64,000 nucleotides of DNA from Eledone cirrhosa (taxonomy: Eukaryota): positions 268,894,001 through 268,958,000 of the forward strand of contig OZ024740.1 in the NCBI GenBank assembly GCA_964016885.1, written 5' to 3'. Position numbers and translations under genes: made by a program. The stretch's first letter is position 1; every line of letters begins with the position of its first letter. The notes below the pieces were generated by a model. It had not been told where the DNA came from and made no database searches. It saw nothing but the letters and a program-made list of their open reading frames with translations. Of this stretch, positions 16,985-41,832 are shown one piece after another.

Positions 16985-19900
16985 ATGTTGAACCTAAACA
17001 GTGAAGTGGAGACTGGAATATCATGTGACAGCAGGTGCTCCCTGGCTCAGCAGCAGGGACCTGGCTGTCAATCAAATACTGCTGGTGTTGGAGGAAGAAG
17101 AAGAAGGAAAGGGACCAGAACCAACTGGACCAAAGAAATGAATAGAACTGTTATGCAATGTTACCTGAAGAGTAACCCCAAGGAAACGGATGCATAACAT
17201 CTGGAACGAGATTGGTCTATTTAAATTAGATGAACAAAAATTGGCCGGGAAGGCTCGGGTAATAAGAACTAATGGGTGGATAAGCGAGCTGGAACTGGAG
17301 GAACAGAGCAGAGATATTAGGTTGGAAATGGAGAGTGGAGTATGCCAGGAAAACGAGCCAGTGGGAAATGAAGGTGAAGAGGTTGAGAGAACGGAGGAAC
17401 CATCCGAAGCAGACAATGATCTGAATGCTGAAATGCTGAAAATGAATGCTGAAATAAATAATACCTGGAACAGAGATACGGCCGTTGAGGAGATGAATGC
17501 TGACGGGCTAGGACAAGATTTGGTTGATATCCTAAACTTAGTGGTATATGAAGAAACGACTGAATTGTCAAATCAGGGAAATGAGAAATGACATTGGAAA
17601 GCTTGAGTCCCTACTGAATGGGACACTAAAAAACATAGACACTAAAAATAGACTGGAAATAAAGTACAAAACTAGGAGGAAAAAGCTAAATATTATCATA
17701 GAGGAACTGAACCAACGCATTGTAGCAAAGAGTGCAAAAATGAGGCGATACGAGAGCAGAGTCAGTCAGTATAGACAAAACCGCATATTTGACAACAACC
17801 AGAAGATGCTGTTTGGAAAGCTTGAAGGGAAAGAAAGAGGCAACGACTTGATCCCTGAGGCAAAACAAAATAAGACAGTCTGGAGAGGAATATGAGAGCA
17901 GGATGTTAAACATAATGGCCAGGCAGAGAAAGTACAAAAGGAGATTAATGAACAGGCACACCAACAAACTGAATTGAGTATCACAGTTGAAACTCTTAAG
18001 GGGCAGGCCAAGAAACTAACCAACTGGAAATCACCAGGCCCAGATGGTGTGCAGGGGTATTGGATTAAAAATATAACATCCCTCCACTCGAAACTGACAA
18101 CCATGTTCAATGACTGCTTGATGTCAGGTGAGGTACAAGAGTGGTTGACAAAAGGTACCACGGTTATGGTAATGAAAGACCGAATCAAGGGTAATGATGT
18201 TACCAACTATAGACCTATCACATGTCTGTCCGTAATGTGGAAACTGTTGACAAACATTGTGTCTGAGGAAATCTACCATCACCTCCACACAAACAACTTG
18301 TTACCGGACGAACAGAAAGGATGCCGAAAGAAGTCCCGTGGTACAAAGGACCAGTTACTTACTGATAAGATGGTAATGAGGAATTGCAAGCGGAGACACA
18401 CTGGTCTGGCCATGGGATGGAAAGACTACAAAAAGGCATTTGACGTGGTGCCTCAATCTTGGATCACCAAAAGCCTAGAGATCTTCAAGGTGGCAGATAA
18501 CATCAGACAGCTGTTGGGCAAAAGTATGAAGTCCTGGAAAACAGAGTTAACATCAGCTGGAGAATCCTTGGGAGGCGTGAAGATCAAGAGAGGTATCTTC
18601 CAGGGAGATAGTCTCTCCCCTCTATTGTTTGTCCTTGCCCTGATGTCCCTGACCATTATACTGCGAAAAGTGAGAGCAGGATACAAGTTGGGAAAGGGAG
18701 AGTTTACCATCAACCACCTCCTCTTCATGGACGATCTTAAGCTCTTCTGGAAGAGTGAGAAGGAGTTGGATGGGCTTGTTGACACTGTCCGTATGTTCAG
18801 CAATGATATATGTATGCAATTTGGTATTAGTAAGTGTGGAGTCCTAGTGATGAAGAGGGGTAAATTGAGCAGAAGCAACGGAATCCAAATACCAACAGGT
18901 GAGATGATAATGGAAATTGACACTGAAGAAGGATACAAGTATTTGGGTGTTAGTAGGCTGATGAAATCAAGTACAAAAAGATGAAGGAATTGATAAGATC
19001 TGAATACATTCGGAGAATAAGGAGCGTATTAAAATCACATCTGAACAGTAGGAATGCCATAAGTGCAGTAAATTCCCGAGCTGTGTCTATTAGTAGGTAC
19101 AGTGCGGGAATTCTGAGATGGAATGTTGCTGAACAAAAAGAAATGAATAGGAAGACTAGGAAGCTACTGACTATCTACAACATGTCCCACAAGAGGAGTG
19201 ATGTCGATAGCCTCTACTTGAGAAGATCTGAAGGTGGAAGAGGTCTTATCAGCATAGAGGACTGTGTTCAGATGGAGAAAAACAACCTACACAAATACGT
19301 GACTGATAGTAAGGAGCCAATGCTCAGAATTGTACTGAAGGAGAGGACAATAGACCAGGGGATGTCCAAGGAGGAAATAACAACAATTAGAAAGAGCAGC
19401 CTTCATGTAAAATCCCTTCATAGTACCTTCTTTGAGAAAACTGAATTCAGAGATCTACAGACATGGAACTGGTTGAAAAGAGGAGACCTTAAAAAGGCTA
19501 CAGAAGGAATGCTAATGGCTGCGCAAGAGCAGGCCCTCAAAACGAAGTGGCTGAAACACCATATTGACAAGGAGGAGGCTAGCCCACTGAGCAGCATATG
19601 TGGAGAGAGAGAGGAGACTGTGGCTCACATTGTATCCGAGTGTAAACACCTAGCCCAGACTCACTATAAAGGCTGGAGACATGATGTGATGGGCAGGGTG
19701 ATCCACTGGCACCTATGCAAAGTAAACAATTTACCACATTCTGAGAAGTGGTATGAGCATAAACCAGAGTCAGTGATAGAAAACGATCAGGTGAAGGTGC
19801 TGTGGGATTTTAGGATACAGACGGACAAGAAATTGGAACACAATAGACCTGACCTGGTGGTTTTGGACAAGGAAAAATGATCGTGCCTGATTGTGGATGT

Positions 19901-20974: not shown

Positions 20975-23900
20975 TTACAGATATATACTCAGAGTAGGCC
21001 CATTCACTCGGGCCATTCTTGCTTCTCTCACCCATCTTTCAACAAAATGCTGGGAAGAGAGCACTTCCCTCTCTACTCTGATTTTCCTTTTCAAATGAAA
21101 TTTGAAAAAGTCAATCAGAGCATCACCGAAGAGGTAAGTGCTCGTCTTCAGCCCTTTCAAGCGTGTCCACCATACTATCTCTTTCGCCATGGCCACCAGA
21201 CAGATAAAAACTGCCTGCCCTTCCCGGCTAAAGGAGGAGGGCGGGGAAATCCTCACGATGGACTCAGATGATAGCCGGATCCGTCCTAAACGCGACAGCA
21301 GGTGTTCGACATGAACCCACAAGTCAGCAATTTTCGGACAATGGACGAGTGCGTGCAGGACGGTTTCGTCGCCCTGCGCGCATCTCGGACATGCCCGGCT
21401 GACGGCACCTCCATGCCTGTAGAGTTTATCCCGAACTGGCAAGGCTCCTCGGTAGCACTGCCAGGCCAGAGATTTCTGGAAGTTGTCCATAGGCCCCGGC
21501 CCGAAAGTTCTTCCGAAGAGATTGGCTAGTTGATTTTCGTCGACGCCTAGAGTTTCCCCAAGTACGTCGTCGCTCTTCCCCTCCACTAATCCTCTATAGA
21601 ACGCCGAGGTGGAGTTTCCACCGATCACATTGCCCGATTAGTCGAGGGCTGTGAGCGCCTGAAGACATTCCAGTCTCCAGACGCTCCCTCTCGGTCTTCG
21701 CTTGACCCAGGACTGCAGCTACGTCAAGGAAACGAGCTGGGGAAATACGCGTCTAGCAAACGGCGACCACACCTGATCACCGTCGAGGAAGAGGTGGAGA
21801 TGTCGTAGCCTGAGTACGTGCCTGCGCATCATCAGCCACGGCATGCCCAGCCCTCCACGTAGCGGGTGTTGTCAACAGATGGACCGCCTGACCATCGGAG
21901 CGCATCCCTTCCACAAAAAGCGAAAGAGCAAACGCTCCAGCGCAGTCAGGCGAGGCATAGGACAAGGTACGACAGTCAGGCGGTAGCAGATGACAGACGC
22001 GATGTACGCGTTAGCCACCTCCGCTCGACCTTTCAGGGATAGCTTCCTCTCCGCCCATTTCTGGGTGAGAGAAGCCACCCTGCTCGTCACCTCGTCCCAG
22101 TTTTTGTCCGTCTGGAGGTCCGGACAGAACCAGACCCCTAGCAATTTAACCGGTCCGTCCGTCCAGCGTCCGACGACGCTGTTGGACGGCATGGACCTGC
22201 CTCTCCAGGTGCCGAGCTGCAGGCCCACTGACTTTTCCTGGTTGTTCATTGCTCCTGTCACCGCTTCGTATTCTCTTAGTGTGGTGCCGATCGCCTCGAT
22301 GTGTTTGGCGTTCGACACCACTACGGTGACATCGTCCGCATATGCTGACACGGATCTTCCGCATCCTAGTTCGCGCGGGACGCCCCTCAACGTCTCCAGT
22401 TTGTGCAGTAATGGCTCGAGAGTCAATACGTACAAGAGGGACGAGAGGGGACATCCTTGGCGGACCGAGCGCATGATGTTGAACGGTTCCGACAGGTGAC
22501 CGTTCACTCTCACCACAGAGCAGATGTCGCTGTGCATGGCAGCGATCCAGCCTCTGAAGACGGGCCCAAAACCAGCCGCCCTCAGGACTGCCGCTAGGTA
22601 ACGATGGTCGACCCTATCGAAAGCTTTCGACTGATCTAAATTGATCAAGGACCCACCCGTGCCAGGTTCCCTAGCTACCCTCTCTACGATGTATCGCATG
22701 AGGTGGAGGTTGTCGTGGATGGATCTGTCGGGAATGGCGCATGTCTGCGCCTCTCCCACCAGACCACCAACGACAAGCGCCAACCTCTTTGCTAGCACCT
22801 TGGCCAAAATCTTGAACTCTGTGTTTAGCAGAGTTATGGGCCGGAAATTATCTATGTTATCCCCCTTGTTCGGATCCTTTCTCAGCAGCGCCACCGCTCC
22901 TCGGCTCACAGAACTGGGAATTCTCCCGTTCTGTTGCCAGTTGCAGTAGACGTCCGCCAAGAGGCGTCCGAACAAGTCTGGCATCTGTACGTAAAGTTCA
23001 TAGGGCAGACCATTCAAACCAGGCAATTTACCCCTTGTGCAGCCAGTCATTGCCTCCCTTACTTCAGCGGCTGTTATCGGCTTTTCGCAACACTTCGCCT
23101 CAGTGGCCGAGAGCCGCGGCAGTCCGTCGAGGTAGACACTAAAGTCCATCCCTCGACCCGGCCCACCGCTTCCCGCGAACAGCTGAGCGAAGTGTCGCTG
23201 AAAAGCTTCACACATTTGCCCGGAATCGAGTAGCATGCGCCCGTCGTGGTCCACCAAAGACCGGATCGTGGCTTTGTTGCCACGACGCGCCTCCGCCAAT
23301 CGGGCCCATTGAACGGCTTTCGTCCCCTCGTGTCTAAGAGCACGCACCCTTGCTTTGACAACGCAGCCTTCGTGCTTTGCATTGAAGAATTGGTCAAGGG
23401 CCAATTTCGCCGCAAGCACGTCGGTCGCAATGCCTTTGCTAAGCGCCTCGTCTAATTTTCTAACTAGTTCTCCCTCTTCTCTATTTTTCTCTATTGCTAA
23501 AGCCTTACTAAACCTAATGGATTCTATTCTAATCGCTCTTTTCAGAGCAAACCACCACTTGTTGTTGACGATGGCCCCCGTCAACGCCCGCTTAACTAGT
23601 TCTCTAATCCGGTCTCTGTAGGCCTTGCGCGCTGGTAAGGACGCGTTTAGCTTCCAGTAGCCGGGTCCTCGTCTATGAAGCCTATCTAAGTCAAGCACAC
23701 AGATCACGAATTTGTGGTCCGTGTAGCTAACTATCTTGAATTGTGGACAGCCTATGCTAGACCTATCTATTTCCCTACAAAATACTCTATCTAGATATGA
23801 TCTGGATGACCCTATGCGATTTGTCCAAGTCCACATTGGCACATTCGGGAAATCCAATCGGTACCTGTCAGACAGTTCAAAACGCCTGAGCAGGTTGGTG

Positions 23901-24393
23901 AGGCTCTTGCACCCTCCACCCCTATCCGCTAATCCCACACAGTCCCAGCGTGCATCTAAGATCCCGTTCCAGTCGCCCACTAACACTAAAGAGCGGGACG
24001 TTCCAAGAAAGGTCTCCAGACGCCGGAAGAAATCAGGCCGCCCTGCTCCTGTCGGGGCATAGACGGCCACTAGCCTGAAAGCTTGCCCGTCTCCGCTGGT
24101 CACGTCCAGCACCACCAGCTTACCCTCTGGGTCCAGGAAGATGGCCCGTATGGCGAGATCCAAACCTCTCCGAAAAAGCACAGCAACTACTCCCCCGATC
24201 CAGGACGGCTGGGAGATGCGTACACATCGTAGCCGCCGAAGATTGGTGCGAAGGCCCGTGCTTCGGAGATTCTGGTCTCGCTGATGGCCACTACATCTAT
24301 GTTTAGTGACCTGAGGTCGTTGAGCAGGTGACCTTGCTTCCATGACGACCCCAAGCCACGCGCATTTATGCTGCCTATTCTGAGTGAGGTCAT
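20975..24393 (-). pseudogene. LINE ORF2: AP endonuclease, reverse transcriptase, zinc finger (frameshifted)
   Basis: SINARGL, ISET, AVYAP, GDWN, SYLD, TDH (APE); NFRPITLLN, DQSKAFDRV, VRQGCPLS, AYADD (RT); CPRC..ETVLHALVHC. Frame breaks near 24.2 kb and 21.6-21.9 kb. Confidence 0.93.
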
Positions 24394-24428
24394 GTTTAAA
24401 ATAGAGTGGAAAAGATGGGAAAGACCAC

Positions 24429-26500
24429 TTACCGTACTTTTGGTAGAGGAGGGATGGTTTTTACATCCCTTTTCACTTGATCGTCCCTTCGGCTGGTCGT
24501 CGGCTCTTCTATGAGTATGTCCGAATATACTCTTCGGTTGATAGTTCCTCCTAGGTCTCTGAAATCACCAACTGCGTTGGGGAATTTCGTTTTAATGTTT
24601 GTGTATTGTTTCTGTGCTATTTTTAGCAGTCTTATGTTAGTTGGCGTTTTGATTGGTGCTGGTATTATGTAGTCGTGTTGTGAAATGTCTGTGTTCAATT
24701 ATGTAAGTCATTAGTTTCTTGTTGTGTGTATTTATTGCCGTGCATTTGTTTTTCTGGGGGTGGGGTGTGGTTCTGCTATTTTCTTGTCGTTGTTGCTGGG
24801 TGTGTGTGTTTTGTTGTTGTGTTTGCGATGTTGGTGCTTGTGGTGGTGGTGTTTAAGGTGTTGTTGGCGGTGGGGTTGTCGCCGGTGGTGATGGTGGTGC
24901 TAGTGTGGGTGGTGATGGTGTTGGTGGTGTTGCTGCTGTGAGTCTCTTTGCAGTAGACTTTACCCTTTTCTCATTTCTTTCCTCCCTTTTCAAAGGCGAC
25001 GATGCGCTACTTCTGCGTTTGTGCCTTCTTACGACCTTTTGCCATCCCTCTCCCACCTCACACTCCATGTCTGATTCTGTGAGGTCGGGGAGGGGTACCA
25101 GCTCCACTCTTTCACTTGTTGTTGTTGGTGATGTTTGCACTGGAGTCTCTCTTGCAGCTGCATTTGGTATTGCTGTTGTTGTTGTTAATACTTCCACTGC
25201 TGCTGCTGTTTTTGATTTCCGTGGCATGGGTATGGGTGCCACGGACCTATCGTTCCTGGTTGCCGCTTGTCCTGTTGCTGGTAGCCGTGGAGCCGGTTTC
25301 GGAAGGAGGGAGGTTTTCTCCTTTCTCAGGGTCTTCTCGTTGCAGAAGGCTCTGAGGTGAGTCTTCGATCCACAGCGAAAGCATTTCGGGCGTTTGCCCT
25401 CAACACTTATGGGCAGTTGAGTGCCGTTATCGAAGTCTATCACATCCGGGATGCACTCCTGGTTGGTTTGGATTAACATCTCAATGGAGGTGCCGACCCA
25501 ATCTTCTCTTACTTTTTTCTGTACTTGCAGTACAGTTGTTTTGTCCTCGATTCCGACGAGGACAGACGCGGCCAGCCAAGAAGGGGCCATCCCGGGGGGG
25601 GGGGGGGGTCAGTTTGACCCTCACAATTTTTTGCCCGCAGTAGGAGGGCACCAACACCATTTCCTCGCTCCTTAGGGTCACTAGGGATTGAGCCTTTGCC
25701 TCCTGGGGTGTGGCAAAATGTACGTCTACGGTGGCATATTTCTTGCCTCGGGTGATGTGCGTTTTCCGCTGCCACACAGACCCCAAGGCTTTTTGTATTT
25801 GAGCCTCTGTGGCTCTTTCAACCCTACGGGATTCTGTACTTACTGTACGGTACGTGACCGTACAGTGCTGTTGGGTTTCGAAAAATTTTTCCGCTGCCTT
25901 GCAGATTGCTCGGTGTCCACTTTTTGTCACCATCTTCTTCGCTTCCTCTAATTCCTCATTTGTTATGAGGATTGTTTCCAGGTTCTTCGCGATACCTGCA
26001 AACGAGATTGGTTTTTCTTTGCTGCTGTTGTTGTTGTTGTCGTCAGAGCTGCTGTTACTTTTGTTGTTGCTGCAGGTACTACGACTACTGCCGCCGCCGC
26101 TGTTGCTGTGGTTGTTGTTGTTGTTGTTGCTGCTGCTAATGCTGTTGTTGTTTATGCTGCTGCTGATGCTGTTGCGGCTGCTACTGTTGTATTCATTGTC
26201 ACTGTTGCTGTTGTTATTACGGCTGCTACTGCTATTATTCCTGACGTCAGACGAATGAAATAGGTTTTCGTATTTCCCGCACACCTGTTTCGTCGTTGTC
26301 GTCGTCGTCGTGGAGAAATCTTGCACGCTTTGCACGAGACTTTTCTTTTCTGTCGTCGCTTGCGAAAGAGAAGGGAGGGAGAGAGACACATTTAAAGAAG
26401 GGAGGGAGAGAGACAATCTTCTCCCTGCTGTAGTGACGATTGAGGAAGAAGAAGACGGAATGAGTGGGAGTGGCCTATGAAAATTCTTTTTCGTAGCCAT
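24429..26500 (-). pseudogene. LINE ORF1, gag-like with CCHC zinc knuckle (frameshifted)
   Basis: ATG at 26500, Asn/Ser low-complexity N-terminus, CFRCGSKTHLRAFC knuckle, Thr/Pro-rich tail. Frame break at the G15 run 25594-25608 and again near 24.7-24.85 kb. Confidence 0.85.
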
Positions 26501-26716
26501 GTTGTTTTTTTTGTTTAAAATAAATATTGGGCACAAAACCCCAATAAGCAGTTATTTAACCCCGAAGAGCCAAATAACGGGCAGAAAGACCCCTCTCACG
26601 AGGAGGAGGGTGTTTTTGTCTACAAGTTGGTTAAAGTTTTAAACAATTTACAATTGTTATAGCGTTCAAAATTTACAATACCTTACAAAGCCGAGCCTCC
26701 GTCAACCATAGCATTC

Positions 26717-26770
<54 letters not shown>

Positions 26771-28329
26771 TGACACGAGAGTGCAAGATAAGGAGAGGGT
26801 GAAAATTAACCGATACCAGGATTTAGTTTGTCCCCTTTATTGTTTGTCCTTACCCTGATATCCCTCTCCGTCATATTGCGAAAAGTGAAAGCAGGATACA
26901 AGGTGGGAAGAGGCGAGATTACCATGAACCACTCCTCTTCATGGACGATCTTAAACTCTTTGGGAAGGGTGAGAAGAAGTTGGATGTACTTGTTGCCACT
27001 GTCGGAATTTTCAGCAATGATTTATGTATGGAATTTGGTGTTCATATGAGTCGAAGCCTAGTGATGATGAGGGGAAGCAACGGAATCCAGATACCAACAG
27101 GTGAGATGGTAAGGGAAATTGACACTGAAGAGGGATACAAATATTTAGGTGTTCTGGAAGCAGATGACATCAAGAACAAAAACAAAATGAAGGAATTGAT
27201 TAGATCTGAGTACATAAGGAGAGTAAGGAACATACTAAAATCACATCTAAATAGTAGGAATGTCATAAGTGCAGTAAATTCCCGAGCTGTGTCTATTATT
27301 AGGTACAGTGCGGGAATTCTGAAATGGAATGTTCCTGAACAAAAAGAAATGGATAGGAAGACTAGGAAGCTAATGACTATCTACAACATGTTCCACAAGA
27401 GGAGTGATGTTGATAGACTCTACTTAAAGAGATCTAGGTGGAATAGGTCTTATCAGCATAGAGGACTGTGTTCAGATGGAGAAAACAGTTTGCACAAAAT
27501 TTTACTGAACTGGAAAACAACAGACCAGGGGATATCCAAGGAAGAAATAACAAGGAGGAAGAGCAACCTTCATGAAAATTCCCTTCATAGCACCTTCTTT
27601 AAAAAAACGGAATTCAAAGATCCAGTAGGAGACCTTAAAAAAGCTACAGAAGGAATGCTAATGGCTGTGCAAGCGCAAGCCCTCAGAACGAAGTGGCTGA
27701 AACACCATATTGACAAGGAGGAGGCTAGCCCACTGTGCAGGATCTGTGGAGAAAGAGAGGGGACTGTGGCTCACATTGTATCCTAGTGTAAACACCTAGC
27801 CCAGACTCACTATAAAGGCTGGAGATGTGATATGATAGGCAGGTTGATTCACTGGCACCTATGCAAAGTAAACAATTTACCACATTCTGAGAAGTGGTAT
27901 GAACATAAGCCAGAGTCGGTGAAGTTAAGGTGCTATGGGATTTTAGGATACAGATGGACAAGAAATTAGATCGTGCCTGCTTGTAGATGTAGCCTGCTCA
28001 GTTGACACGAGAGTGCAAGAAAAGGAAAGGGAGAAAATTAACCGATACCAGGATTTACAGTGGGAGTTACAAAGGATTTGGAGCTGCCATGAGATCAAGG
28101 ACGTGCCGATTGTCATATGTGCACGAGGTACTATATTAAAGAGTTTCCCAGGATGGTTAAAGAAGAATAGTCCAGCGAAGTTTTTTGGAAGTCTTCAAAA
28201 GTCATGTTTGCTGGGAATAGGAAGAATTCTCCGATACGTCCAGAATGTCTGAGGCTGCAGGTAGCGGCTTGATATTAATTTCAACAAACTTTCCAGTTAA
28301 ATAACGTTAATGACTGAGACTCAAAGAAC
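26771..28329 (+). mobile_element. 5'-truncated R4/Dong-like LINE copy
   Basis: FMDDLKLF, YKYLGV, CRICGEREGTVAHIVS and the RLE region; closely similar to 18610-20233 including the 3'UTR; ends in AAT-like repeats. Confidence 0.92.
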
Positions 28330-28695
28330 AATAATAACAATACTAATAATAGTTATACTTATATATATGATATCTATCTATATATCTAAAACAGAGAATG
28401 TCTGTCCACTCACTAAAACTCGAGAACCACCAAACCGATTGTTTTCAAACTTTACCCATGAAATACTTATGAACCGCATTAGGCTATTTAGCGATCTCTC
28501 TCTATAACACTTAGTCTTTCTCTTTTTAAATCGATACACAGATATAACGTTGCGCCCTTGTAATATCTGTCTGTATAACTGGGTGTCTGCATTACGACAT
28601 TACGACGTAGCTGTGTGTGTGTATATATATATATATGTATATATATAGTGTGTATATATAAATATATATATATATGTATATATATAGTGTGTGTG

Positions 28696-28783
<88 letters not shown>

Positions 28784-29207
28784 GAACACTGGTTTAACCG
28801 CTTTACATCCCCCCGTAGAAGAGATATTATCTCGAAAATTAACGACATTTAAATAAATCTAAGGTAAAAGACTAATTGTCAGCTATATCTTATGCATTTG
28901 CATTCTTTATTCTATGTCTATACCTGCATTGTTTTGGCTTTATTATACATATACAAACGTTTATATTAATATATATATATATATATATTGTGTGTGTGTA
29001 GCGCTTTCCAAAATATTTACTTCTGCGTTCACAGATTCATTTTTTTATTTTAGTTTCAGAAGATACCGTTAAGGGTGAAAGCAGCTATTCGTTGCTTAAA
29101 CTTTAATCTGTTATTTTAATAAATATTTGATCTACGGTTCTTATATATTTGATATATATTTATCCTTATCGAGCTCTCTTTGGATTTAGTCTTCAAATTT
29201 ATTATAT

Positions 29208-29246
<39 letters not shown>

Positions 29247-29383
29247 CCACTATATATACATTCATTTATATATCGCTATTTCAGAGCACCAATTCTAATT
29301 TTAAATTTCTGCTTGACCGGCAGCCGCTCTGTATAATCAGTCCCTGATTATTAATAGAATTCTATAAGAATCAAATATTCATG

Positions 29384-29478
29384 ATTTTCAGCAAACAGGT
29401 GGAGTACTTAGCTTTGATAAGTACCAAAAAGTACGAAACAGGGCTCTGTCAGCTTTATCTCCCCTGTTTACTGAAAAT
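29384..29478 (+). ncRNA. Type I hammerhead ribozyme (U3-A8 core) with extended stem I
   Basis: AUUUUCAGCAAACAGG U GGAG UACUU AGCU UUGAUAA GUAC CAAAAA GUAC GAAAC AGGGCUCU GUC AGCU UUAU CUCC CCUGUUUACUGAAAAU; predicted cleavage after C29450. Confidence 0.9.
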
Positions 29479-30429
29479 TTAAAGTAAGGGAGACTGTCGC
29501 TACTCTAAAACAGAAACGTAAGGTCTTCGAAATGCTTTTAATTAAGCATACAGTGTATTGCAAAATCCAATATATATACATTCATTTATATATCGCTATT
29601 TCAGAGCACCAATTCAAATTTTCAATTTCTGCTTGACCGGCAAACGATCTGTATAATCAGTCCCTGATTATTACTAGAATACTATTAGAATCAAACATTC
29701 ATGATTTTCAGCAATCAGGTTCAAGTACTTAGCCTAGATAAATACCAAAAAGTACGAAACAGAGCTCTGTCAGCTTTATCTCCCCTGTTTGCAGAAAATT
29801 TAAAGAAGGTGAGACTGTCACTACTCTAAAACAATAGCGTAAGGGCTTCGAAATGCTTTTAATTAAGCATACCGTGTATTGCAAAATACACTATATATAC
29901 ATTCATTTTAATATCGCTATTTCAGAGCACCAATTCTAATTTTCAATTCCTGCTTGACTGGCAACCGCTCTGTATAATCAGTTCCCGATTATTACTAGAA
30001 TTCTATAAGAAACAAACATTCATGATTTTCAGCGTAAGGTCTTCTAAATGCTTTTAATTAAGCATACAGTGTGTTGGAAAATACACTATATATACATTCA
30101 TATATATATCGCTATTTCAGAAAACCAATTCTAATTTTCAATTTGTACTTCACCAGCAACCGCTCTTTATAATCAGTTCCTGATTACTACTAGAATTCTA
30201 TAAGAATCAAACATTCATGATTTTCAGCAAACAGGTGGGGTACTTAGCCTTGATAAGTACCAACAAGTACGAAATAGAGCTCTGTTAGCTTTATCTCCCC
30301 TGTTTGCTAAACATTTAAAGTAAGTGAGACTGTCACTACTCTAAAACAATAGCGTAAGTTGTTCGAAATGCTTTTAATTAAGCAGTCAGTGTATTGCAAA
30401 ATCCACTATATATACATTCATATATATAT

Positions 30430-30467
<38 letters not shown>

Positions 30468-30468
<1 letters not shown>

Positions 30469-30843
30469 ACAGTGCAGAGAAGTACGGAAAACATCGGCCT
30501 CGGGATGGTGTCTACATTTTGGTCTTATACAAAACATTCGTCGTAGATTACCAGGTTTTTTATCCGTGCGAAGAAAATCAATTCTTTATCTCGAAATAAA
30601 TACCTTTGTTTATATTTACTAATTGAATATATATTTATATATATATATATATAATTATATATTCGTGTACAGATATTTTTGCATACACGATTAGTAAATA
30701 TAAACAAAGGTATTTATTTCGAGATAAAGAATTGATTTTCTTCGCACGGATAAAAAACCTGGTAATCTACGACGAATGTTTTGTATAAGACCAAAATGTA
30801 GACACCATCCCGAGGCCGAGGTATTCCGTACTTCTCTGCACTG

Positions 30844-30846
<3 letters not shown>
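30468..30846. repeat. Fold-back element (~155 bp arms) at the orientation switch of the array
   Basis: AACAGTGCAGAGAAGTACGGAA...TATTTACTAAT mirrored by ATTAGTAAATA...TTCCGTACTTCTCTGCACTGTT; (TA)n on both sides. Confidence 0.93.
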
Positions 30847-30917
<71 letters not shown>

Positions 30918-33900
30918 ATATATAAATGTATATATAGTGGATTTTGCAATACACTGACTGCTTAATTAAATGTTTGATTCTTATAGAATTCTAGTAATAA
31001 CCAGGAACTGATTATACAGAGCGGTTGCTGGTTAAGCACAAATTGAAAATTAGAATTGGTTTTCTGAAATAGCGATATATCTATGAATGTATATATAATG
31101 TATTTTGCAATACACGGTATGCTTAATTAAAAGCATTTCGAAGCCCTTACGCTATTGGATTAGAGTAGTGACAGACACACCTACTTTAAATTTTCTGCAA
31201 AGAGGGGAGATAAAGCTGACAGAGCTGTGTTTCGTACTTTTTGGTATTTATCAAGGCTAAGTACTTGAATCTGATTGCTGAAAATCATGAATGTTTGATT
31301 CTTATAGTATTCTACTAATAATCGGGAACTGATTATACAGAGCGGTTGCCGGTCAAGCAGAAATTGAAAATTAGAATTGGTGCTCTGAAATAGAGATATT
31401 AAAATGAATGTATATATAGTGTATTTTGTAATACACTGTATGCTTAATTAAAAGCATTTCGAAGCCCTTACTCTATTGTTTTAGAGTAGTGACAGTCTCA
31501 CTTACTTTAAATTTTCAGCAAACAGGGGAGATAAAGCTGACAGAGCTCTGTTTCGTACTTTTTTGTATTTATCAAGTCTAATTACTTCACCTGATTGCTG
31601 AAAATCATGAATGTTTGATTCTTATAGAATTCTAGTAATAATCGGGAACTGATTATACAGAGCGGTTGCCGGTCAAGCAGAAATTTAAAATTAGAATTGG
31701 TGCTCTGAAATAGCGATATTAAAATGAATGTATATATAGTGTATTTTGCAATAATCTGTATGCTTAATTAAAAGCATTTCGAAGCCCTTACGCTATTGTT
31801 TTAGAGTAGTGACAGTCTCACCTTTTTTAAATTTTCTGCAAACAGGGGAGATAAAGCTGACATAGCTCTGTTTCGTACTTTTTGGTATTTATCAAGGCTA
31901 AGTACTTGAACCTGATTGCTGAAAATCATGAATGTTTGATTCTTATAGAATTCTAGTAATAATCAGGAACTGATTATACAGAGCGGTTGCCGGTCAAGCA
32001 GAAATTAAAATTAAAATTGGTGCTCGGAAATAGCGATATATAAATGAATGTATATATAGTGTATTTTGCAATACAATGTATGCTTAATTAAAAGCATTTC
32101 GTAGACCTTACGCTATTGTTTTAGAGTAGTGATAGTCTCACTTACTTTAAATTTTCAGCAAACTGCGAAGAAAAAGCTGACAGAGCTCTGTTTCGTACTT
32201 TTTGGTACTTATCAATGCTAAGTACTCCACCTGCTTGCTGAAAATCATGAATGTTTGATTCTTATAGGATTCTAGTAATAATCAGGAACTGACTATACAG
32301 AGCGGTTGCCGGTCAAGCAGAAAATGAAAAAGGGAATTGGTTCTCTGAAATGGCGATATATATATGAATGTATATATAGTGGATTTTGCAATACACTGTA
32401 TGCTTAATTAAAAGCATTTAGAAGACCTAACGCTGAAAATCATGAATGTTTGATTCTTATAGAATTCTAGTAATAATCGGGAACTGATTATACAGAGCGA
32501 TTGCCGGTCAAGCAGAAATTGAAAATTAGAATTGGTGCTCTGAAATAGAGATATTAAAATGAATGTATATATAGGGTATTTTGTAATACACTGTATGCTT
32601 AATTAAAAGCATTTCGAAGCCCTTACTCTATTGTTTTAGAGTAGTGACAGTCTCACTTACTTTAAATTTTCAGCAAACAGGGGAGATAAAGCTGACAGAG
32701 CTCTGTTTCGTACTTCTTGGTATTTATCAAGGCTAAGTACCTGAACCCTATTGCTGAAAATCATGAATGTTTGATTCTTATAGAATTCTAGTAATAATCG
32801 GGAACTGATTATACAGAGCGGTTGCCGGTCAAGCAGAAATTACAATTAGATTTGGTGCTCTGAAATAGCGATATATAAATGAATGTATATATAGTGTATT
32901 TTGCAATACACTGTATGCTTAATTAAAAGCATTTCGTAGACCTTACGCTATTGTTTTAGAGTAGTGACAGTCTCACTTACTTTAAATTTTCAGCAAACAG
33001 CGGAGATAAAGCTGACAGAGCTCTGTTTCGTAATTTTTGGTACTTATCAATGCTAAGTACTCCACCTGCTTGCTGAAAATCATGAAAGTTTGATTCTTAT
33101 AGGATTCTAGTAATAATTAGGTACTGACTATACAGAGCGGTTGCCGGTCAAGCAGAAAATGAAAAAGGGAATTGCTGCTCTGAAATAGCGATATATATAT
33201 ATATATGAATTTATATATAGTGTATTTTGCAATACACTGTATGCTTAATTAAAAGCATTTCGAAGACCTTACCTTATTGTTTTAGTGTAGTGACAGTCTC
33301 ACTTACTTTAAATTTTCAGCAAACAGGGGAGATAAAGCTGACAGAGCTCTGTTTCGTACTTTTTGTTACTTATCAAAGCTAAGTACTCCACCTGTTTGCT
33401 GAAAATCATGAATATTCTATTCTTATAGAAATCTATTAATAATCAGGGACTGATTATACAGAGCGGTTGCCGGTCAAGCAGAAAATGAAAAAGGGAATTG
33501 GTGCTTTGAAACAGCTATATATATATATGAATGTATATATAGTGTATTTTGCAATACACTGTATGCTTAATTAAAAGCATTTAGAAGACCTTACGCTGAA
33601 AATCATGAATGTTTGATTCTTATAGAATTCTAGTAATAATCAGGAACTGATTATACAGAGCGGTTGCCGGTAAAGCAAAAATTGAAATTAGAATTGGTGC
33701 TCTGAAACAGCGATATATAAATGAATGTATATATAGTGTATTTTGCAATACACTGTATGCTTAATTAAAAGCATTTCGAAGCCCTTACGCTATTGTTTTA
33801 GAGTAGTGACAGTCTCACCTACTTTAAATTTTCTGCAAACAGGGGAGATAAAGCTGACAGAGCTCTGTTTCGTACTTTTTGGTATATATCAAGGCTAAGT

Positions 33901-36493
33901 ACTTCACCTGATTGCTGAAAATCATGAATGTTAGATTCTTATAGAATTCTAGTAATAATCAGGAACTGATTATACAGAGCGGTTGCCGGTCAAGCATAAA
34001 TTGAAATTAGAATTGGTGCTCTGAAACAGCGATATATAAATGAATGTATATATAGTGTATTTTGCAATACACTGTATGCTTAATTAAAAGCATTTCGTAG
34101 ACCTTACGCTATTGTTTTAGAGTAGTGAGCGTCTCACTTACTTTAAATTTTCAGCAAACAGCGGAGATAAAGCTGACAGAGCTCTGTTTCGTAGTTTTTG
34201 GTACTTATCAAGGCTATGTACTCCACCTGCTTGCTGAAAATTATGAATGTTTGATTCTTATAGGATTCTAGTAATAATCAGGAACTGACTATACAGAGCG
34301 GTTGCCGGTCAAGCAGAAAATGAAAAAGGGAATTGAAGCTCTGAAATAGCGATATATATATATGAATGTATATATAGTGTATTTTCAATACACTGTATGC
34401 TTAATTAAAAGCATTTCGAAGACCTTACCTTATTGTTTTAGTGCAGTGACATTCTCACTTACTTTAAATTTTCAGCAAACAGGGGAGATGAAGCTGACAG
34501 AGCTCTGTTTTGTACTTTTTAGTACTTACCAAGGCTAAGTACTCCATCTGCTTGCTGAAAATCATGAATATTTGATTCTTATAGAATTCTATTACTAATG
34601 AGGGACTGATCATACAGAGCGGTTGCCGGTCAAGCAGGAAATGAAAAAGGGAATTGGTGCTCTGAAATAGCTATATATATATATGAATGTATATATAGTG
34701 TATTTTGCAATACACTGTATGCTTAATTAAAAGTATTTAGAAGACCTTACGCTGAAAATCATGAACGTTTGATTCTTATAGAATTCTAGTAATAATCGGG
34801 AACTGATTATACAGAGCGGTTGCCGGTCAAGCAGAAATTGAAAATTAGAATTGGTGCTCTGAAATAGCGATATTAAAATGAATGTATACATAGTGGATTT
34901 TGCAATACACTGTATGCTTAATTAAAAGCATTTCGAAGCCCTTACGCTATTGTTTTAGAGTAGTGACAGTCTCACCTACTTTAAATTTTCTGCAAACAGG
35001 GGAGATAAAGCTGACATAGCTCTGTTTCGTACTTTTGGGTATTTATCAAGGCTAAGTACTTCACCTGACTGCTGAAAATCATGAATGTTTGATTCTTATA
35101 GAATTCTAGTAATAATCAGGAACTGATTATACAGAGCGATTTCCGGTCAAGCAGAAATTGAAATTAGAATTGGTGCTCTGAAATAGCGATATATAAATGA
35201 ATGTATATATAGTGTATTTTGCAATACACTGTATGCTTAATTAAAAGCATTTCGTAGACCTTACGCTATTGTTTTAGAGTAGTGACAGTCACACTTACTT
35301 TAAATTTTCAGCAAACAGCGGAGATAAAGCTGACAAAGCTCTGTTTCGTACTTTTTGGTACTTATCAAGGCTAAGTACTCCACCTGCGTGCTGAAAATTA
35401 TGAATGTTTGATTCTTATAGAATTCTATTAATAATCAGGGACTGATTATACAGAGCGGTTGCCGGTCAAGCAGAAAATGAAAAAGGGAATTGGAGCTCTG
35501 AAATAGCGATATATATATATGAATATATATATATGAATATAGTGTATTTTGCAATACACTGTATGCTTAATTAAAAGCATTTCGAAGACCTTACCTTATT
35601 GTTTTAGTGTAGTGACAGTCTCACTTACTTTAAATTTTCAGCAAACAGGGGAGATAAAGCTGACAGAGCTCTGTTTCGTACTTTTTGTTACTTATCAAAG
35701 CTAAGTACTCCACCTGTTTGCTGAAAATCATGAATATTTGATTCTTATAGAATTCTATTAATAATCAGGGACTGATTATACAGAGCGGTTGCCGGTCAAT
35801 CAGAAAATGAAAAAGGGAATAGGTGCTCTGAAATAGCTATATATATTTATGAATGTATATATAGTGTATTTTGCAATACACTGTATGCTTAATTAAAAGC
35901 ATTTAGAAGACCTTACGCGGAAAATCATGAATGTTTGATTCTTATAGAATCTAATAATAATCAGGAACTGATTATACGGAGCGGTTGCCGGTCAAGCAGA
36001 AATTGAAAATTATAATTGGTGCTCTGAAATAGCGATATAAATTGAATGTATATATAGTGTATTTTGCAATACACTGTATGCTTAATTAAAAGCATTTCGA
36101 AGACATTTCGCTATTGTTTTAGGGTAGGGACAGTCTCACTTACTTTAAATGTTCAGCAACATGGGACATAAAGCTGACAGAGCTCTGTTTTGTACTTTTT
36201 AGTACTTATCATGGCTAAGTACTCCATCTGCTTGCTGAAAATCATGAATGTTTGATTCTCATAGAATTCTAGTAACAATCAGGAACTGATTATACAGAGC
36301 GGTTGCCGGTCAAGCAGAAAATGAAAATTAGAATTGGTGCTCTGAAATAGCGATATATATATATGAATGTATATATATATGTATTTGCAATACAATGTAC
36401 GCTTAATTGAAAGCATTTCGAAGACCTTACCTTATTGTTTTAGTGTAGTGACAGTCACACTTACTTTAAATTTTCAGCAAACAGGGGAGATAA

Positions 36494-36538
36494 AGCTGAC
36501 AGAGCTCTGTTTCGTACTTTTTGGTACTTATCAAAGCT
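36494..36538 (-). ncRNA. Type I hammerhead ribozyme core, intact copy
   Basis: Minus strand AGCU UUGAUAA GUAC CAAAAA GUAC GAAAC AGAGCUCU GUC AGCU. About 14 further variants at ~31214, 31534, 31854, 32175, 32690, 33010, 33336, 33852, 34171, 34492, 35009, 35328, 35658 and 36172. Confidence 0.9.
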
Positions 36539-37654
36539 AAGTACTCCACCTGTTTGCTGACAATCATGAATGTTTGATTCTTATAGAATTCTAGTAATAA
36601 TCGGGAACTGATTATACAGAGCGGTTGCCGGTCAAGCAGAAATTGAAAATTAGAATTGTTGCTCTTAATTAAAAGCAATACCTGCCCTGTTTGCTGAAAA
36701 TTGAAAGTAAGTGTGACTGTCACTACTCTAAAACAATAGCGTAAGGTCTTCTAAATACTTTTAATCAATGCTTTTTAATACAGTGTATTGCAAAATACAC
36801 TATATATACATTCATATATATATCGCTATTTCAGAGCACCAATTCTAATTTTTAATTTCTGCTTGACCGGCAACCGCTCTGTATAATCAGTTCCTGATTA
36901 TTTCTAGAATTCTATTAGAATCAAACATTCATGATTTTCATCAAACAATCGGAGTACTTAGCTTTGATAAGTACGAAAAAAGTACGAAACAGAGCCTCTG
37001 TCAGCTTTATCTGCCCTGTTTGCTGCAAATTTAAAGTGAGACTGTCACTACTCTAAAACTATAGCGTAAGGTCTTCGAAATGCTTTTTATTAATCAAACA
37101 GTGTATTGCAAAATACACTGTATATACATTCATATATATATCGCTATTTCAGAGCACCAATTCTAATTATATATATATACTAGCAGATTTACCCGGCGTA
37201 GCTCTGCGTTTGAAATTATGCTAAGAATATACAGCTAGGAAGTAAAAGAAGAACATTATTTGTCCCCAACCTGTCAAAATAAGCAGAAGTCTTCAATAAT
37301 TAATGCAAACAAATATTTAGTGCAATCTTTGTACACATAAAACTATTTCTGATAATGAAGGAAAACACTGAACAGGATGTAGTTATATAAAATATAAAGA
37401 CGTTGCAAATCTGTAAAAAAAACAGGCAGTTTTGCTAAATTACAAAAAGTTGTAATGAAAGCAGAGTTGTATACAAACAAAAAAGCAATGAGAGTAGAAT
37501 AAGAGAAAATCTATTTTTTGAGAGCATCCTTTGCTGTGTATGGTTAATTTTTTAACTTATAATCTAAAATATCCTGCATGACATCTTCATTGGTATGTTT
37601 TGTAATGAGTAAGGTGAAGTCAAGGCAGAGCTGTAATAAGTTTTTTTGTTAACA

Positions 37655-40600
37655 CTAAAGCACTTCAGGATAGACGATATTCTTTGTTTTTCTTTTCGGA
37701 ACAAACGCAAAGAGATTATCTCGACAGCCAACTCGTGAGCAGGCAACGTAGAATTGTCCGTGCGAAAAGCAAGGTTCATCCAAGTGAATTCCAGCGACGG
37801 ACAGAGTTTGACCTTGCGACTTGTTTATGGACATCGCAAAGGCAACACGAAGGGGAAATTGGGTTCGGCGAAAGGAGAAGGGAGTTTCCACGCCTGATGT
37901 AGTCAGACTAATTTTTGTTATTATCACAACCTCGCCTTTTCCACATCCGGATAGAATGTTAGCGTCAATACTAAGTGGAGACAGTTTTTTAATCACAAGG
38001 CGTGTACCATTGCATAGTTTTGGAGGAGTGATATTTCTCAGCAAAATAACTGGCGTTCCCTCTTTCACAACCAATGTATTAGGAGGTAAACCAGGAGGAT
38101 TTAAATAATTTAGAAATTCAACTGGATAGTTGACCGCATCCTGTGGATCACATACAGTATCAATAGATTTATATATCCGTGGACATCCAGGAAGAAGCTG
38201 AAGAAGCTGATCGTTAATACAGCTAACCGTGATATTTTGGGGTGCAAGAATGGCTCTTTCGCATAGCCAATCAAGATTCGTATAGTTATCACGCAAGTTC
38301 GGGAATACACTCGCCTTGAGATCATCGACAGTTTCAACTACATTGCAGATGTGATCAATTGCTGTGCGTCCACCTGTATCCGGATGTAGGTTACCCTCTC
38401 CTATTGTAAGAATGTCTCCAGAAAATGTGATGACAGAGGGTCCCCATGCAGCCTTGCACGCATGTTGGTAGTTAGTCTTAATGATGTCACTTGTCGCCAC
38501 AATGGTGAAGACTCAAGATATGCATTTACCGCATCTGCTCTTGTTCCTTTCGGTATTATAGGAAGAGTCTGTCTGAAGTCTCCTGATAGCAGAAGGGTGA
38601 CACCCCCCATAACATCACTACAATCCCGTATGTCTTGAAAAGCCCTGTCTAGTGCATCAAGAGCACCTTTGTGCGCCATTGTGCACTTATCCCAAACAAT
38701 AAGGTGACACCTTCGCAGCAGATGAGCCCTGTTAGAGTCTTTGGTGATATGACAAGTAGGAGTTTCCAATTTTGCCAAATCAAGGGGCAATTTAAAAACT
38801 GAATGTGCCGTTCTTCCACCAGGAAGCAAAGTTGCTGCGATTCCAGAGGACGCAACTGCTATTGCTATGTCCTTATTCTGTCTAACCTTTGCAAGAGGTT
38901 TAGTAACGAAAGTTTGTCTGTCCTCCCTGGAGCATCGAGGAAAAATATGCCACCTCTTGTTTGAAATACTAATTTAGTAATGGTGGTATAAGCCAGTCGC
39001 TGATCAGCTACAAGTTTTGGCTCATTATCTGTGACGTAGATGGCAGTGGATTGGCAGTATCAGTAGAGGGTCGGACGCGATGCTTTCTAGCATAGAGTTA
39101 CGTCCCTTTACGGACTGAGTTCAAATGCCTCCAAGGTTAACTTTGCCTTTCATCCTTACGGGGTCGATAAAATAAAGTACCAGTAATGTACTGGGTAATT
39201 GCTGGCCTTGTGCCTAAAGTAGAAACAATTATCTGTGACGTAGAGGCCGAGATCATGGATGTCATAAGAAGTCTCCTGTATGATATCTGTGGGAAGTTTG
39301 TTTGAGTCTGTGCGATGAGTTTCTGGTAAACCGTAGTCACGTAAAACCTTTCCTCCAATCAGAGCTAACTTGTCCTCAATATCAATGAGAGCTCTGTTGT
39401 ATAATTCATTACTAAAGCCGACCTCTATTTCTGGAAGCATCAATTTTGCTTGGTGTCTGTAGCTGTCTGTTAGTTCATCCCTATATTTCATCCACAAGGA
39501 CAGAGGATCAGATAAGTTGCACGTGTGCAAAAGTACCGCAAATACATTTTTTAGGCTGGCAGGTGAATGTGAAAGAGCAACTTCCGCCATCGTTGCATCC
39601 CACTGCGAACCATCTTCCAGCAATCCACGCCTCAAACATGCCTTTGGGTATGTTAGAAGAACTTGTCCGTCTAACGTTCAGAGATCATTCAAGCAGGTAG
39701 GTCCTCTGACCTCATGTAGTAGCATGCTAAGATGGAAGCACTCGTGTTGGTTTGGGGGCACAGTATAAACTCTGTCCAAGCACTCGTTGAATTTGAGGCC
39801 TGGATAACCTTCGACACACTGTCCTGTTTTTCTTCATTTCCATGTATTTTTGTCCCAGGTATAGTAAGATGGGACTTGTGGATATAGTAAGGTTTTAGCA
39901 AATGGATCTTCTTGACATAGTTTACAGAAAGCGGTAAGAGTAGTATCCTTTGGTTCTTGTGCAACTGAGCAGCTGATGCATTCGTAAAATATACTCCCTG
40001 ACCGTTCTCCAGGTGCACTTGGAGTTTTTGAACAGCAGGATGCGTTGATGTATAAAAAATCCGAAAATCCGCCAGAACGCTTCATTAGAGTTAATGTATA
40101 TTCCAGTTTGGTACTGGGCCACTTCATCTCGGCTGTTTTCCCGAAGTAATCCAAACGTAGCAGCATCAGAGCCTTTAGTAATGTACTTACAAATGTATTT
40201 TATAGATTTAATCGAATTACAGTATTCTACGTTTATGTGTGCATCAAGAATCTTTATAAGGAGTGGATTATATGGAACAACTCATCTGTTGTCAACCTCA
40301 TGTTTGCCAACCCTTGCTGTGAATCCACCATCTTCGGGTCTTCTCCGGCGATATAGTGGGTATCTGTCATGGCCAGTCTGAGTGTCCTTAAGGAACTGTC
40401 GGGGAAATTTAGTTGAGCACTTAGACTTGTCCTTAACACACGGTAGGTTGTTGAGAAATCCATGTCCACATGGGCCAGCATCTTGAAATTTTTCGAAAAA
40501 GAACCGAGGACTTCCTGTGAAAGATGAAGGCAGGATGCACAACAGTCCAATACTATCAGGATCTGCATCATTGTTCATTCCATCACGAAGGTGAATGTAA

Positions 40601-41832
40601 GTGTCACAGCGAAGTTGTTTCTGATTAAGTCGAATGAAGCATAATCTCTCGGACTCCATTTTTGCGAACATGTCAACTGCAAATTGATTGAAGAGGTCTT
40701 GTGATCGGTGCAGCTGGTTGAAGCAGTTGTCGCAGACCATGAATCGGAAAGCGTAAAAATCCATACACGTGACAATTTTCGTGGTATGCTCATCTTGGTT
40801 TGTGGAATTAATTTGATGAATTCCGAAATGGTATCCATCCTCACCATAAACAAATAATAGCGGATACTGGAGTGCGTCGTAAGATCGATGGGTTTCACTC
40901 ATTCTGTTAAGGCTGTTGTCTCGTCGCTTGATAATAATGTCTCTCTTGTTGTGCTGCTCTCCACTAATAACGATGGCTACCTCATTACAAGTAGGTGCAT
41001 TATACCGGCCCGCATGCTCCGCAGATGGTCTCTCATCAGCGTAAATGATGATATCGTAATTTGGCGAAGGTGCTTCTTCTGAAGAATACTTGAAGCTTTT
41101 AATGTAGCTATTGTTAGAGTGAAGCATGTCTTGGAGGTCAATCAAGAGTTCCAGTTTAGTGTCTGAAGTGTACGATTGCCTTAGATCTGCTTGCTGATGA
41201 CAGTTAACAATAAAGTAAACCTGTAAAAGTTGTGGCTCTTCAGTAGGCAACGGTTGCAGTGATCCAATGAGATGATACACCTGGCCCTGTACTTTGAAAG
41301 TCGGCATAAATCCATCTTCCTTCAGACGTTTTGCACCGAAAGAGGTCATTTGAAACGCAATGTTGTACTGTCGGATATGCTTCAGAAAATCACGTGATTG
41401 TGAATGCTTGCTTGTTAGAAGCATCTGGAGAGGTTGCGGTGGTTCCCTAAGGGTGGGTAAATTAACCTTACCGTTGGAGCAGCACATTCCAACTGATCTC
41501 CCCCCTCCCTCCCCCACACACACTTTTTAGCTTTACAATGTTGGCAAATATTTTACATGGCATATATTTGAATATCAGGATGGATTTGATAGTTTACATA
41601 AGGGTCATAATTAACTGCCTTAAGGTACCATCGTGAGCGTGATGCCTTTGAAATACTCCGCGATAAAGCTCTACGTTGAGCGTTAACGCTCAGCGGCGGA
41701 CAAAGATGTTGCAATAACTGTACTCACTGCATTTAGCGATTGTCTATTTTCGGTTATCGGTGGAGCGTCATTTACATGCATTGTTTTCTTCGACCGAGAG
41801 CCAATATGTGCATACTTTCTTTTACGGGGCAT
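37655..41832 (-). pseudogene. Helitron RepHel (HUH replication initiator plus PIF1-family helicase), disrupted
   Basis: CCSNGKV, YNIAFQMTSFG, SYDALQYPLLF, LPSSFTGSPR, KYICKYITKGSD, GGRTAHS, GDFRQTLP, LCNGTRL, QFPLRVAFAMSINKSQGQT, FSHGQFYVACSRV. Multiple frameshifts and a SINE insertion. Confidence 0.95.
39041..39227 (+). mobile_element. tRNA-derived SINE inserted into Helitron ORF
   Basis: Same SINE family; 17 bp TSD ATTATCTGTGACGTAGA (39024-39040 and 39228-39244). Confidence 0.94.

Follow-up and report, generated by a model that had tools for sequence, protein, structure and literature searches.

A hammerhead array on both strands

The window analysed here, a stretch of 64,000 nucleotides from Eledone cirrhosa (assembly GCA_964016885.1, contig OZ024740.1, positions 268,894,001 to 268,958,000), carries at 29244-37168 an array of short units with hammerhead ribozyme-like motifs. 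We interpret it as a locus of a non-long-terminal-repeat (non-LTR) retrozyme family that was probably mobilised in trans by GIY-YIG Penelope-like elements (PLEs), the locus itself being an old insertion later enlarged by DNA duplication. An earlier note had proposed a tandem array of about 19 hammerheads, one in each ~320-bp monomer, and both numbers were borne out: there are 19 motifs (4 on the plus strand, 15 on the minus strand) in units of 319-330 bp, with a mean pairwise identity of 91% and a GC content of 30-34%. The units are repeated, but mapping the monomer, after cutting it at the predicted cleavage site, resolved three blocks on both strands with a palindrome between them, rather than one head-to-tail array. 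Further, not every monomer has its motif; it is deleted at five junctions, which fuse monomer position 261 to 65, and a sixth junction fuses 248 to 87. No stop-free frame of at least 120 aa lies within 29244-37168, and the unit has no reverse transcriptase (RT) plus GIY-YIG frame; it is not itself a PLE. The features are as follows.

29211..29244, no strand: left (TA)n flank
29244..30429, plus strand: block A, 3.6 monomer lengths with 3 motifs, ending at a short 3' end in a TA run
29386..29478, plus strand: intact type I hammerhead with a U3-A8 core and long stem I, predicted cut after C 29450
30021..30039, plus strand: ribozyme-deleting junction, found also at about 32433, 33596, 34752 and 35918 on the minus strand
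30469..30844, no strand: central palindrome, a ~190-bp dispersed repeat unrelated to the monomer, between TA runs
30914..36668, minus strand: block B, 15 motifs, short 3' end at about 30914 in (TA)n
36472..36564, minus strand: intact type I hammerhead of the form commonest genome-wide, predicted cut after C 36498
36679..37168, plus strand: block C, 1 motif, ending at a long 3' end (27-nt tail) in (TA)n
within 36679..37168, plus strand: block C hammerhead with no damage to core or stems but with two insertions of 1 nt; predicted cut after C 37002
37169..37180, no strand: right (TA)n flank

The intact motif form quoted previously does exist, as do stems I, II and III, although it is a minority form: core letters are kept in 15 of the 19 motifs, a stem I mismatch adjoins the core in 14, and core and all stems together survive in three, none adjacent to another. 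Specifically, stem I of the intact form consists of AGCU/AGCU, two U-U pairs, an internal loop, and then a long outer helix that extends it by a further ~17 bp, which the earlier description had overlooked. The core reads UUGAUAA (U3-A8), stem II has 4 bp and a CAAAAA loop, and stem III has 4 bp within a 12-nt palindrome that, by analogy with PMC4209133, might also pair between two ribozymes. Intact copies show the defining type I traits, namely a 3-8 Watson-Crick pair, GAAA, a UH cleavage site and three stems. A strict type I descriptor, run over the window and over 200 doublet shuffles of the array region, gave three matches in the window, all inside the array, and none in the shuffles; Rfam returned no match in the array at gathering score, its Hammerhead_HH9 model reaching 24.5 bits (E 2.6e-4) against one copy, below the cut-off of 52. 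The hammerhead fold of 36472..36564 lies 2.9 kcal/mol above the minimum-energy fold, tertiary contacts not being counted, and the whole monomer pairs stably with itself (z of -5.5 as a linear molecule, -6.4 and -6.9 as a circle). PMC3088659 reports the U3-A8 pair as a natural covariant with activity in vitro.

The array grew later, within its locus. Block B is built from a higher-order repeat of ~1.16 kb, comprising three ribozyme-bearing units and one ribozyme-deleting junction, whose copies are mostly 95-97% alike and have ribozyme lesions in common. The exact 19-mer of the deletion junction occurs three times in the genome, all inside this array, so we rejected the idea that the 1.16-kb repeat moves as a unit, the junction being exclusive to the locus by exact match. 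Because the higher-order repeat is locus-private, the array was expanded locally by DNA duplication, after damage to most of its ribozymes. Blocks B and C can be read as one inverted insertion, with its short end at 30914 and its long end at 37168, block C being the inverted arm of the original insertion. Block A shares with block B both the locus-private deletion junction and variants, and the arms of the 375-bp central palindrome are just 92% identical; block A is therefore a local inverted copy of block B material, an old fold-back duplicate centred on that palindrome, and not an assembly error. A fold-back centre is of the type that chimeric long reads can produce, but the divergence of the arms, the lack of any inverted match of at least 95% over 100 bp, and the commonness of inverted inserts genome-wide make an artefactual palindromic layout scarcely credible.

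This makes the array a secondary one, largely dead, and short intact tandems such as L005 better candidates for active sources. Two consecutive complete ribozymes, by which Li, Clavereau & Pollet 2026 define an active retrozyme, are present at L005, L006 and L007 but, by strict grading, not in the window array. Elsewhere, L154 (G000:C1:93.46 Mb) and L155 (82.39 Mb) are long arrays of at least 10 and at least 15 units that belong to different subfamilies and have mostly damaged ribozymes. The ~190-bp repeat of 30469-30844 has 1,641 genome candidates (~85% identity) and likewise sits in TA runs; inspection by eye showed no hammerhead in it.

The dispersed family and selection on its fold

Across the assembly searched (3.0 Gb in 1,796 contigs), a backbone 27-mer of the unit has 3,244 exact matches, which count monomer copies and not loci, and an exact 45-mer across the cleavage site has 145, of which the 100 listed are spread over at least four contigs of chromosome size. 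Units of this ~320-bp type form a mobile family, dispersed in thousands of copies. The exact core 26-mer in its window form was found 433 times with U3-A8, never with C3-G8, and seven times in a half-changed state. An unselected set was formed from the first 30 backbone matches, taken without regard to the ribozyme; after removal of eight overlapping loci for the motif tally, the remaining 22 non-overlapping loci yielded 22 parsed motifs, 19 with U3-A8, three with C3-G8, and none mixed. In the nine best-matching dispersed loci, 14 of 22 copies carry a fully intact motif. Subfamilies differ in their stem III palindromes and in stem II, which occurs as GUAC/GUAC, GCAC/GUGC, GCAU/GUGC, GCAU/AUGC and AUAC/GUAU.

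A sister family with units of 313-314 bp is 85% identical to the window family over the first 170 nt and has a U-U at the base of stem II; among its exact matches, C3-G8 is present in 61 of 62 and a GUU cleavage site in 55 of 62. Its loci include L044:2438-2871 and L077-L095 (G000), with 2,689 first-look candidates. In a tree on 96 backbone columns, C3-G8 and U3-A8 are separated by a single, weakly supported split (76/62), and we therefore claim no direction of change.

Comparison of these lineages reveals repeated compensatory change. When the window and sister families were aligned, 95% of cells were paired, as compared with 33-51% in slid controls, and eight of 25 pairs had changed on both sides. 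Alignment A1 omits L082 and other sister-family loci; alignment A2 consists of 17 distinct rows hand-picked across subfamilies. In A2, 13 of 26 pairs had changed on both sides, well above slid controls, including the 3-8 core pair (12 U-A, five C-G, none mixed) and all four pairs of stem II, such that the core pair and every stem were affected. Unpaired core letters were invariant, apart from single damaged copies. Because the compensatory changes fall in the core pair and in all stems, across subfamilies and the sister family, these alignments show that the hammerhead fold was under selection.

Insertion ends, template and Penelope-like elements

The dispersed copies carry a distinctive integration footprint. 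In 33 loci chosen by similarity or core pattern, with window loci and overlapping duplicates (9 of 42) removed, 28 of the 50 3' termini fall at monomer positions 129-143 and 19 at 166-179, with three elsewhere, and 46 of the 47 termini in the two classes contact (TA)n. Thus, there are two fixed ends, ~143 and ~170 nt past the cleavage site, the long end having a 27-nt tail. The inserts are 5'-truncated, with variable 5' ends, and often inverted; one short and one long end were found at 14 of 17 inverted loci. The sister family, in which no plain TA run marks the short end inside the unit, uses the same two end points.

The PLEs of this genome end alike, with two staggered ends in (TA)n (staggers of ~33 nt and 66 nt). 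Integration by PLEs, as described in PMC8557442, produces partial tandems, 5' truncations and inversions, a one-sided tail of 30-40 bp, and a bias toward TA, and the retrozyme inserts display this pattern, with their tail of 27 nt. Using Pfam PF01541, we collected 10,597 GIY-YIG candidates, of which 50 loci were examined. Two of the sampled PLE families contain U3-A8 minimal hammerheads, which our first descriptor did not catch and which required a looser one. One locus, L096 (G000:C1:145870500-145876500), is a young PLE: an open frame of 938 codons encodes RT and GIY-YIG, and its repeats, which are 99% identical and lie 4,979 bp from each other, carry U3-A8 minimal hammerheads. The linker of this open-frame PLE, CX4CX2C, is of the Neptune/Nematis type. 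One of the two PLE families ends with the same last letters as the retrozyme short end (TTCA, then TA), a match that is too short for us to name that family as the partner.

The shared end anatomy would also be expected if the unit were a pseudo-LTR, the terminal repeat of some autonomous PLE family outside our sample, left behind as 5'-truncated tandem or inverted pieces. The sample covers only 50 of the 10,597 candidates, and in Xenopus 24 of 57 retrozyme families have matches among repeats, most of them the termini of PLEs. However, the mapped loci have no coding stretch in common upstream, where there is instead further monomer, an inversion or unrelated flank, and the ribozyme is full-length where those of the sampled PLEs are minimal. 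We consider this origin quite improbable as a replacement for trans-mobilisation, although a pseudo-LTR origin of the monomer would be compatible with it.

Two apparent links between the families did not withstand scrutiny. L044 resembled a PLE with a monomer-homologous end, but elsewhere copies of this PLE terminate ahead of that segment, which is a nested sister-family insertion. L139 resembled a PLE-retrozyme chimera at the hammerhead core, which proved to be an inversion junction. At L139:503-962, a 5'-truncated PLE piece in opposite orientation adjoins a retrozyme 5' inversion with no TA between, representing either a nested insertion or a single event primed on two different RNAs. Separately, the PLE family of L043-L070, L113 and L114 has a minimal hammerhead whose core and stem II (GCAU/AUGC) equal those of the retrozyme subfamily of L139, L145 and L147, through either convergence via a G-U step (L134) or exchange. 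Hammerhead-like motifs with a CUGANGA core, of other families, also occur near GIY-YIG elements (L103:5486, L052:1035, L053:25 and L065:2934).

The same ends bear on whether this is an ordinary satellite, its hammerhead-like motif dead or due to chance, that spread through DNA recombination alone. Although the window array did grow by local duplication with dead ribozymes, and its Rfam score is under the cut-off, such a satellite would not account for fixed 3' ends, TA targets, 5' truncation and inversions, nor for the compensatory changes and the empty descriptor shuffles. Covariation and insertion ends together already largely refute this explanation, which we regard as very improbable.

As to the RNA that was copied, 21 of the 30 unselected copies cross the cleavage site, one starts at it, and eight start inside the unit. 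A cleaved linear monomer was rejected as the template, given that the expected pile-up of 5' ends at the cleavage site was not seen (1 of 30). Ends internal to the monomer, together with the read-through in 21 of 30, indicate that the template was circular or an uncleaved multimer. Further, with window loci and overlapping duplicates again excluded, tandem copies within a locus and inverted arms share minority variants equally often (11% each), compared with 2% between loci; in L156, a terminal piece and the inner units have six private changes in common. Such sharing is as expected from one template copied more than once, and we infer that this template was circular.

The alternative is that a PLE-mobilised unit was copied from linear uncleaved multimers, with a ribozyme that is slow or trims long precursors, and without a monomer circle as intermediate. 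An uncleaved linear multimer would explain the read-through equally well, and the cores of both lineages may be weak, the one having U3-A8 and the other GUU (55 of 62 sister copies) with the U-U at the base of stem II. Minimal hammerheads of PLEs are also poor cleavers in vitro, according to PMC4209133. Against this, the repeated compensatory repair of all stems implies a real catalytic or structural demand, private variants are common to tandem copies, and circular retrozyme RNAs build up in coral, mussel and axolotl (PMC7229834). On balance, we find copying from linear multimers unlikely.

The retrozyme model that we favour can be set out as a series of steps. First, a tandem copy would be transcribed. 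Second, as in tested retrozymes, the type I hammerhead would cut after GUC, and the 320-nt monomer would be ligated into a circle. Third, at (TA)n, where the observed ends lie, a PLE endonuclease would presumably nick the target, and RT would prime inside the monomer, at two AU-rich points that lie ~143 and ~170 nt beyond the cleavage site. With one point per target strand, this would give truncated and inverted insertions with staggered ends. Fourth, copying, presumably around a circle, would pass the cleavage/ligation site, as the read-through indicates, often for more than one round, and yield inserts of 1-3 units. Finally, some inserts would be amplified in place while their ribozymes decay, as is seen in the locus-private higher-order repeat. 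We hold this model to be probable, our confidence being limited mostly by the predicted cleavage and circle steps.

Several observations weigh against this model. Self-cleavage, transcripts and circles are all predicted for this family, and of nine predicted Xenopus retrozyme dimers only one cleaved. Of the 19 ribozymes in the array, 16 carry damage, and the long arrays found elsewhere are likewise for the most part either damaged or the product of recent duplication; the minimum-energy fold pairs the strands of stem I with those of stem III instead of forming the hammerhead. The covariation counts reflect few subfamily- or lineage-level events, not independent sequences, the A2 rows were chosen by the authors, and a measure of further pair types was not above shuffles in either alignment. 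Among inserted copies, the ribozyme is not better conserved than the remainder (2.4% vs 1.9%). A homogeneous genomic tandem would yield the same variant sharing, and because the unit itself has a TA stretch at the short end, some of that end's contact with TA is intrinsic to the unit. Moreover, comparison of the monomer with the ends of the 50 sampled GIY-YIG loci found no homology, except for one nested sister-family insertion, and so points to no particular PLE partner.

The hammerhead might also be a tuned rather than maximal catalyst, one that doubles as a signal read by the PLE machinery, an idea that we hold to be conceivable but doubtful. U3-A8 has been kept through several subfamilies of one lineage, the other has GUU and U-U, and two resident PLE families use U3-A8 as well. 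Both U3-A8 and GUU may be slower than the canonical core, although a literature search yielded no cleavage rates for U3-A8. If so, slow cores would let circles survive long enough for round-copying, which would explain the persistence of metazoan retrozyme circles whose ribozyme is not blocked; the staggered ends would then be the trace of twin priming, by an enzyme of PLE origin, on RNA in circular form.

Relation to known elements

Hammerhead_HH9 is a single conserved intronic copy. The ribozyme described here resembles that Rfam family (RF02275) in its type I layout, identical CAAAAA loop 2 and similar stem I internal loop, but differs in its U3-A8 core and in being repeated and mobile.

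Metazoan non-LTR retrozymes are known from coral, mussel and axolotl, and from newt satellite 2 and schistosome and cricket repeats (Cervera & de la Pena 2020, PMC7229834). The family shares with them a type I hammerhead in tandem units of 150-450 bp with GC below 50%, copy numbers from dimers to long multimers, a stable fold without a coding frame, a palindromic stem III/loop 3, and the presence of PLEs in the same genome; the U-U at the base of the sister family's stem II is as in axolotl HHR_Amex2. It differs in two respects: first, it combines U3-A8 with a full-length ribozyme and a 4-bp stem III, of which we found no mention for retrozymes in the text consulted; second, it has fixed staggered ends in (TA)n instead of target duplications. 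In every testable feature, the family fits the non-LTR retrozymes except for adjacent intact ribozymes at the window locus and pseudo-LTR homology. The retrozyme reading of the earlier note thus holds for the family, on the strength of compensatory changes, low-GC units, a stable fold, dispersed copies and PLE-type ends; as a source of 320-nt circles the locus itself is weak, because its intact ribozymes are non-adjacent and the array expanded after most of the ribozyme damage.

Vertebrate retrozymes, as analysed by Li, Clavereau & Pollet 2026 (bioRxiv 10.64898/2026.07.22.740005), likewise co-occur with PLEs, form monomers, dimers and multimers, and amplify locally into long arrays. There, the evidence was co-occurrence and pseudo-LTR homology, and the authors call life-cycle evidence limited; here, it is an integration footprint, and pseudo-LTR homology was not found in the 50 sampled loci. 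With endonuclease-bearing (EN+) PLEs (PMC4209133; PMC8557442), the family shares partial tandems, 5' truncation, 5' inversions, a one-end tail and a (TA)n bias, and U3-A8 itself occurs in ~1,300 minimal hammerheads of Schistosoma PLEs. Unlike EN+ PLEs, it has no open reading frame, and its ribozyme is full-length, with a long stem I and an internal loop. Hence, retrozymes are a known class; what is new are the family, its branch of full-length ribozymes with U3-A8, and the use of the integration footprint to support mobilisation by PLEs. No description of an octopus or cephalopod retrozyme or hammerhead was found in the accessible literature, although subscription papers and supplements may list the family.

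The movement of animal retrozymes is still a hypothesis, in which PLEs are proposed helpers and circles proposed templates, with scant evidence on the life cycle. In this genome there are thousands of insertions with PLE-type ends and cleavage-site read-through, a ladder of subfamilies with natural compensatory variants that includes the switch between C3-G8 and U3-A8, and an open-frame PLE, which together make the PLE-helper and circle steps directly testable. The insertion ends, in particular, are an unusually clear sign that PLEs copy the 320-base element. A U3-A8 branch of this kind would escape both CUGANGA-limited descriptors and Rfam at its cut-off.

Other repeats surround the array. 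A dispersed repeat lies to its left (28500-29210). On its right (37181-41526), decayed minus-strand frames resemble, by eye, the Rep/Pif1 helicase of what we take to be a Helitron, ending in CTAG at the array's TA flank. Farther to the left, decayed non-LTR retrotransposon frames with RT motifs, also recognised by eye, occupy 17169-19880, 20975-26551 and 26827-27786, and one decayed non-LTR frame has, on the same inspection, an apurinic endonuclease-like start and an ORF1-like frame upstream.

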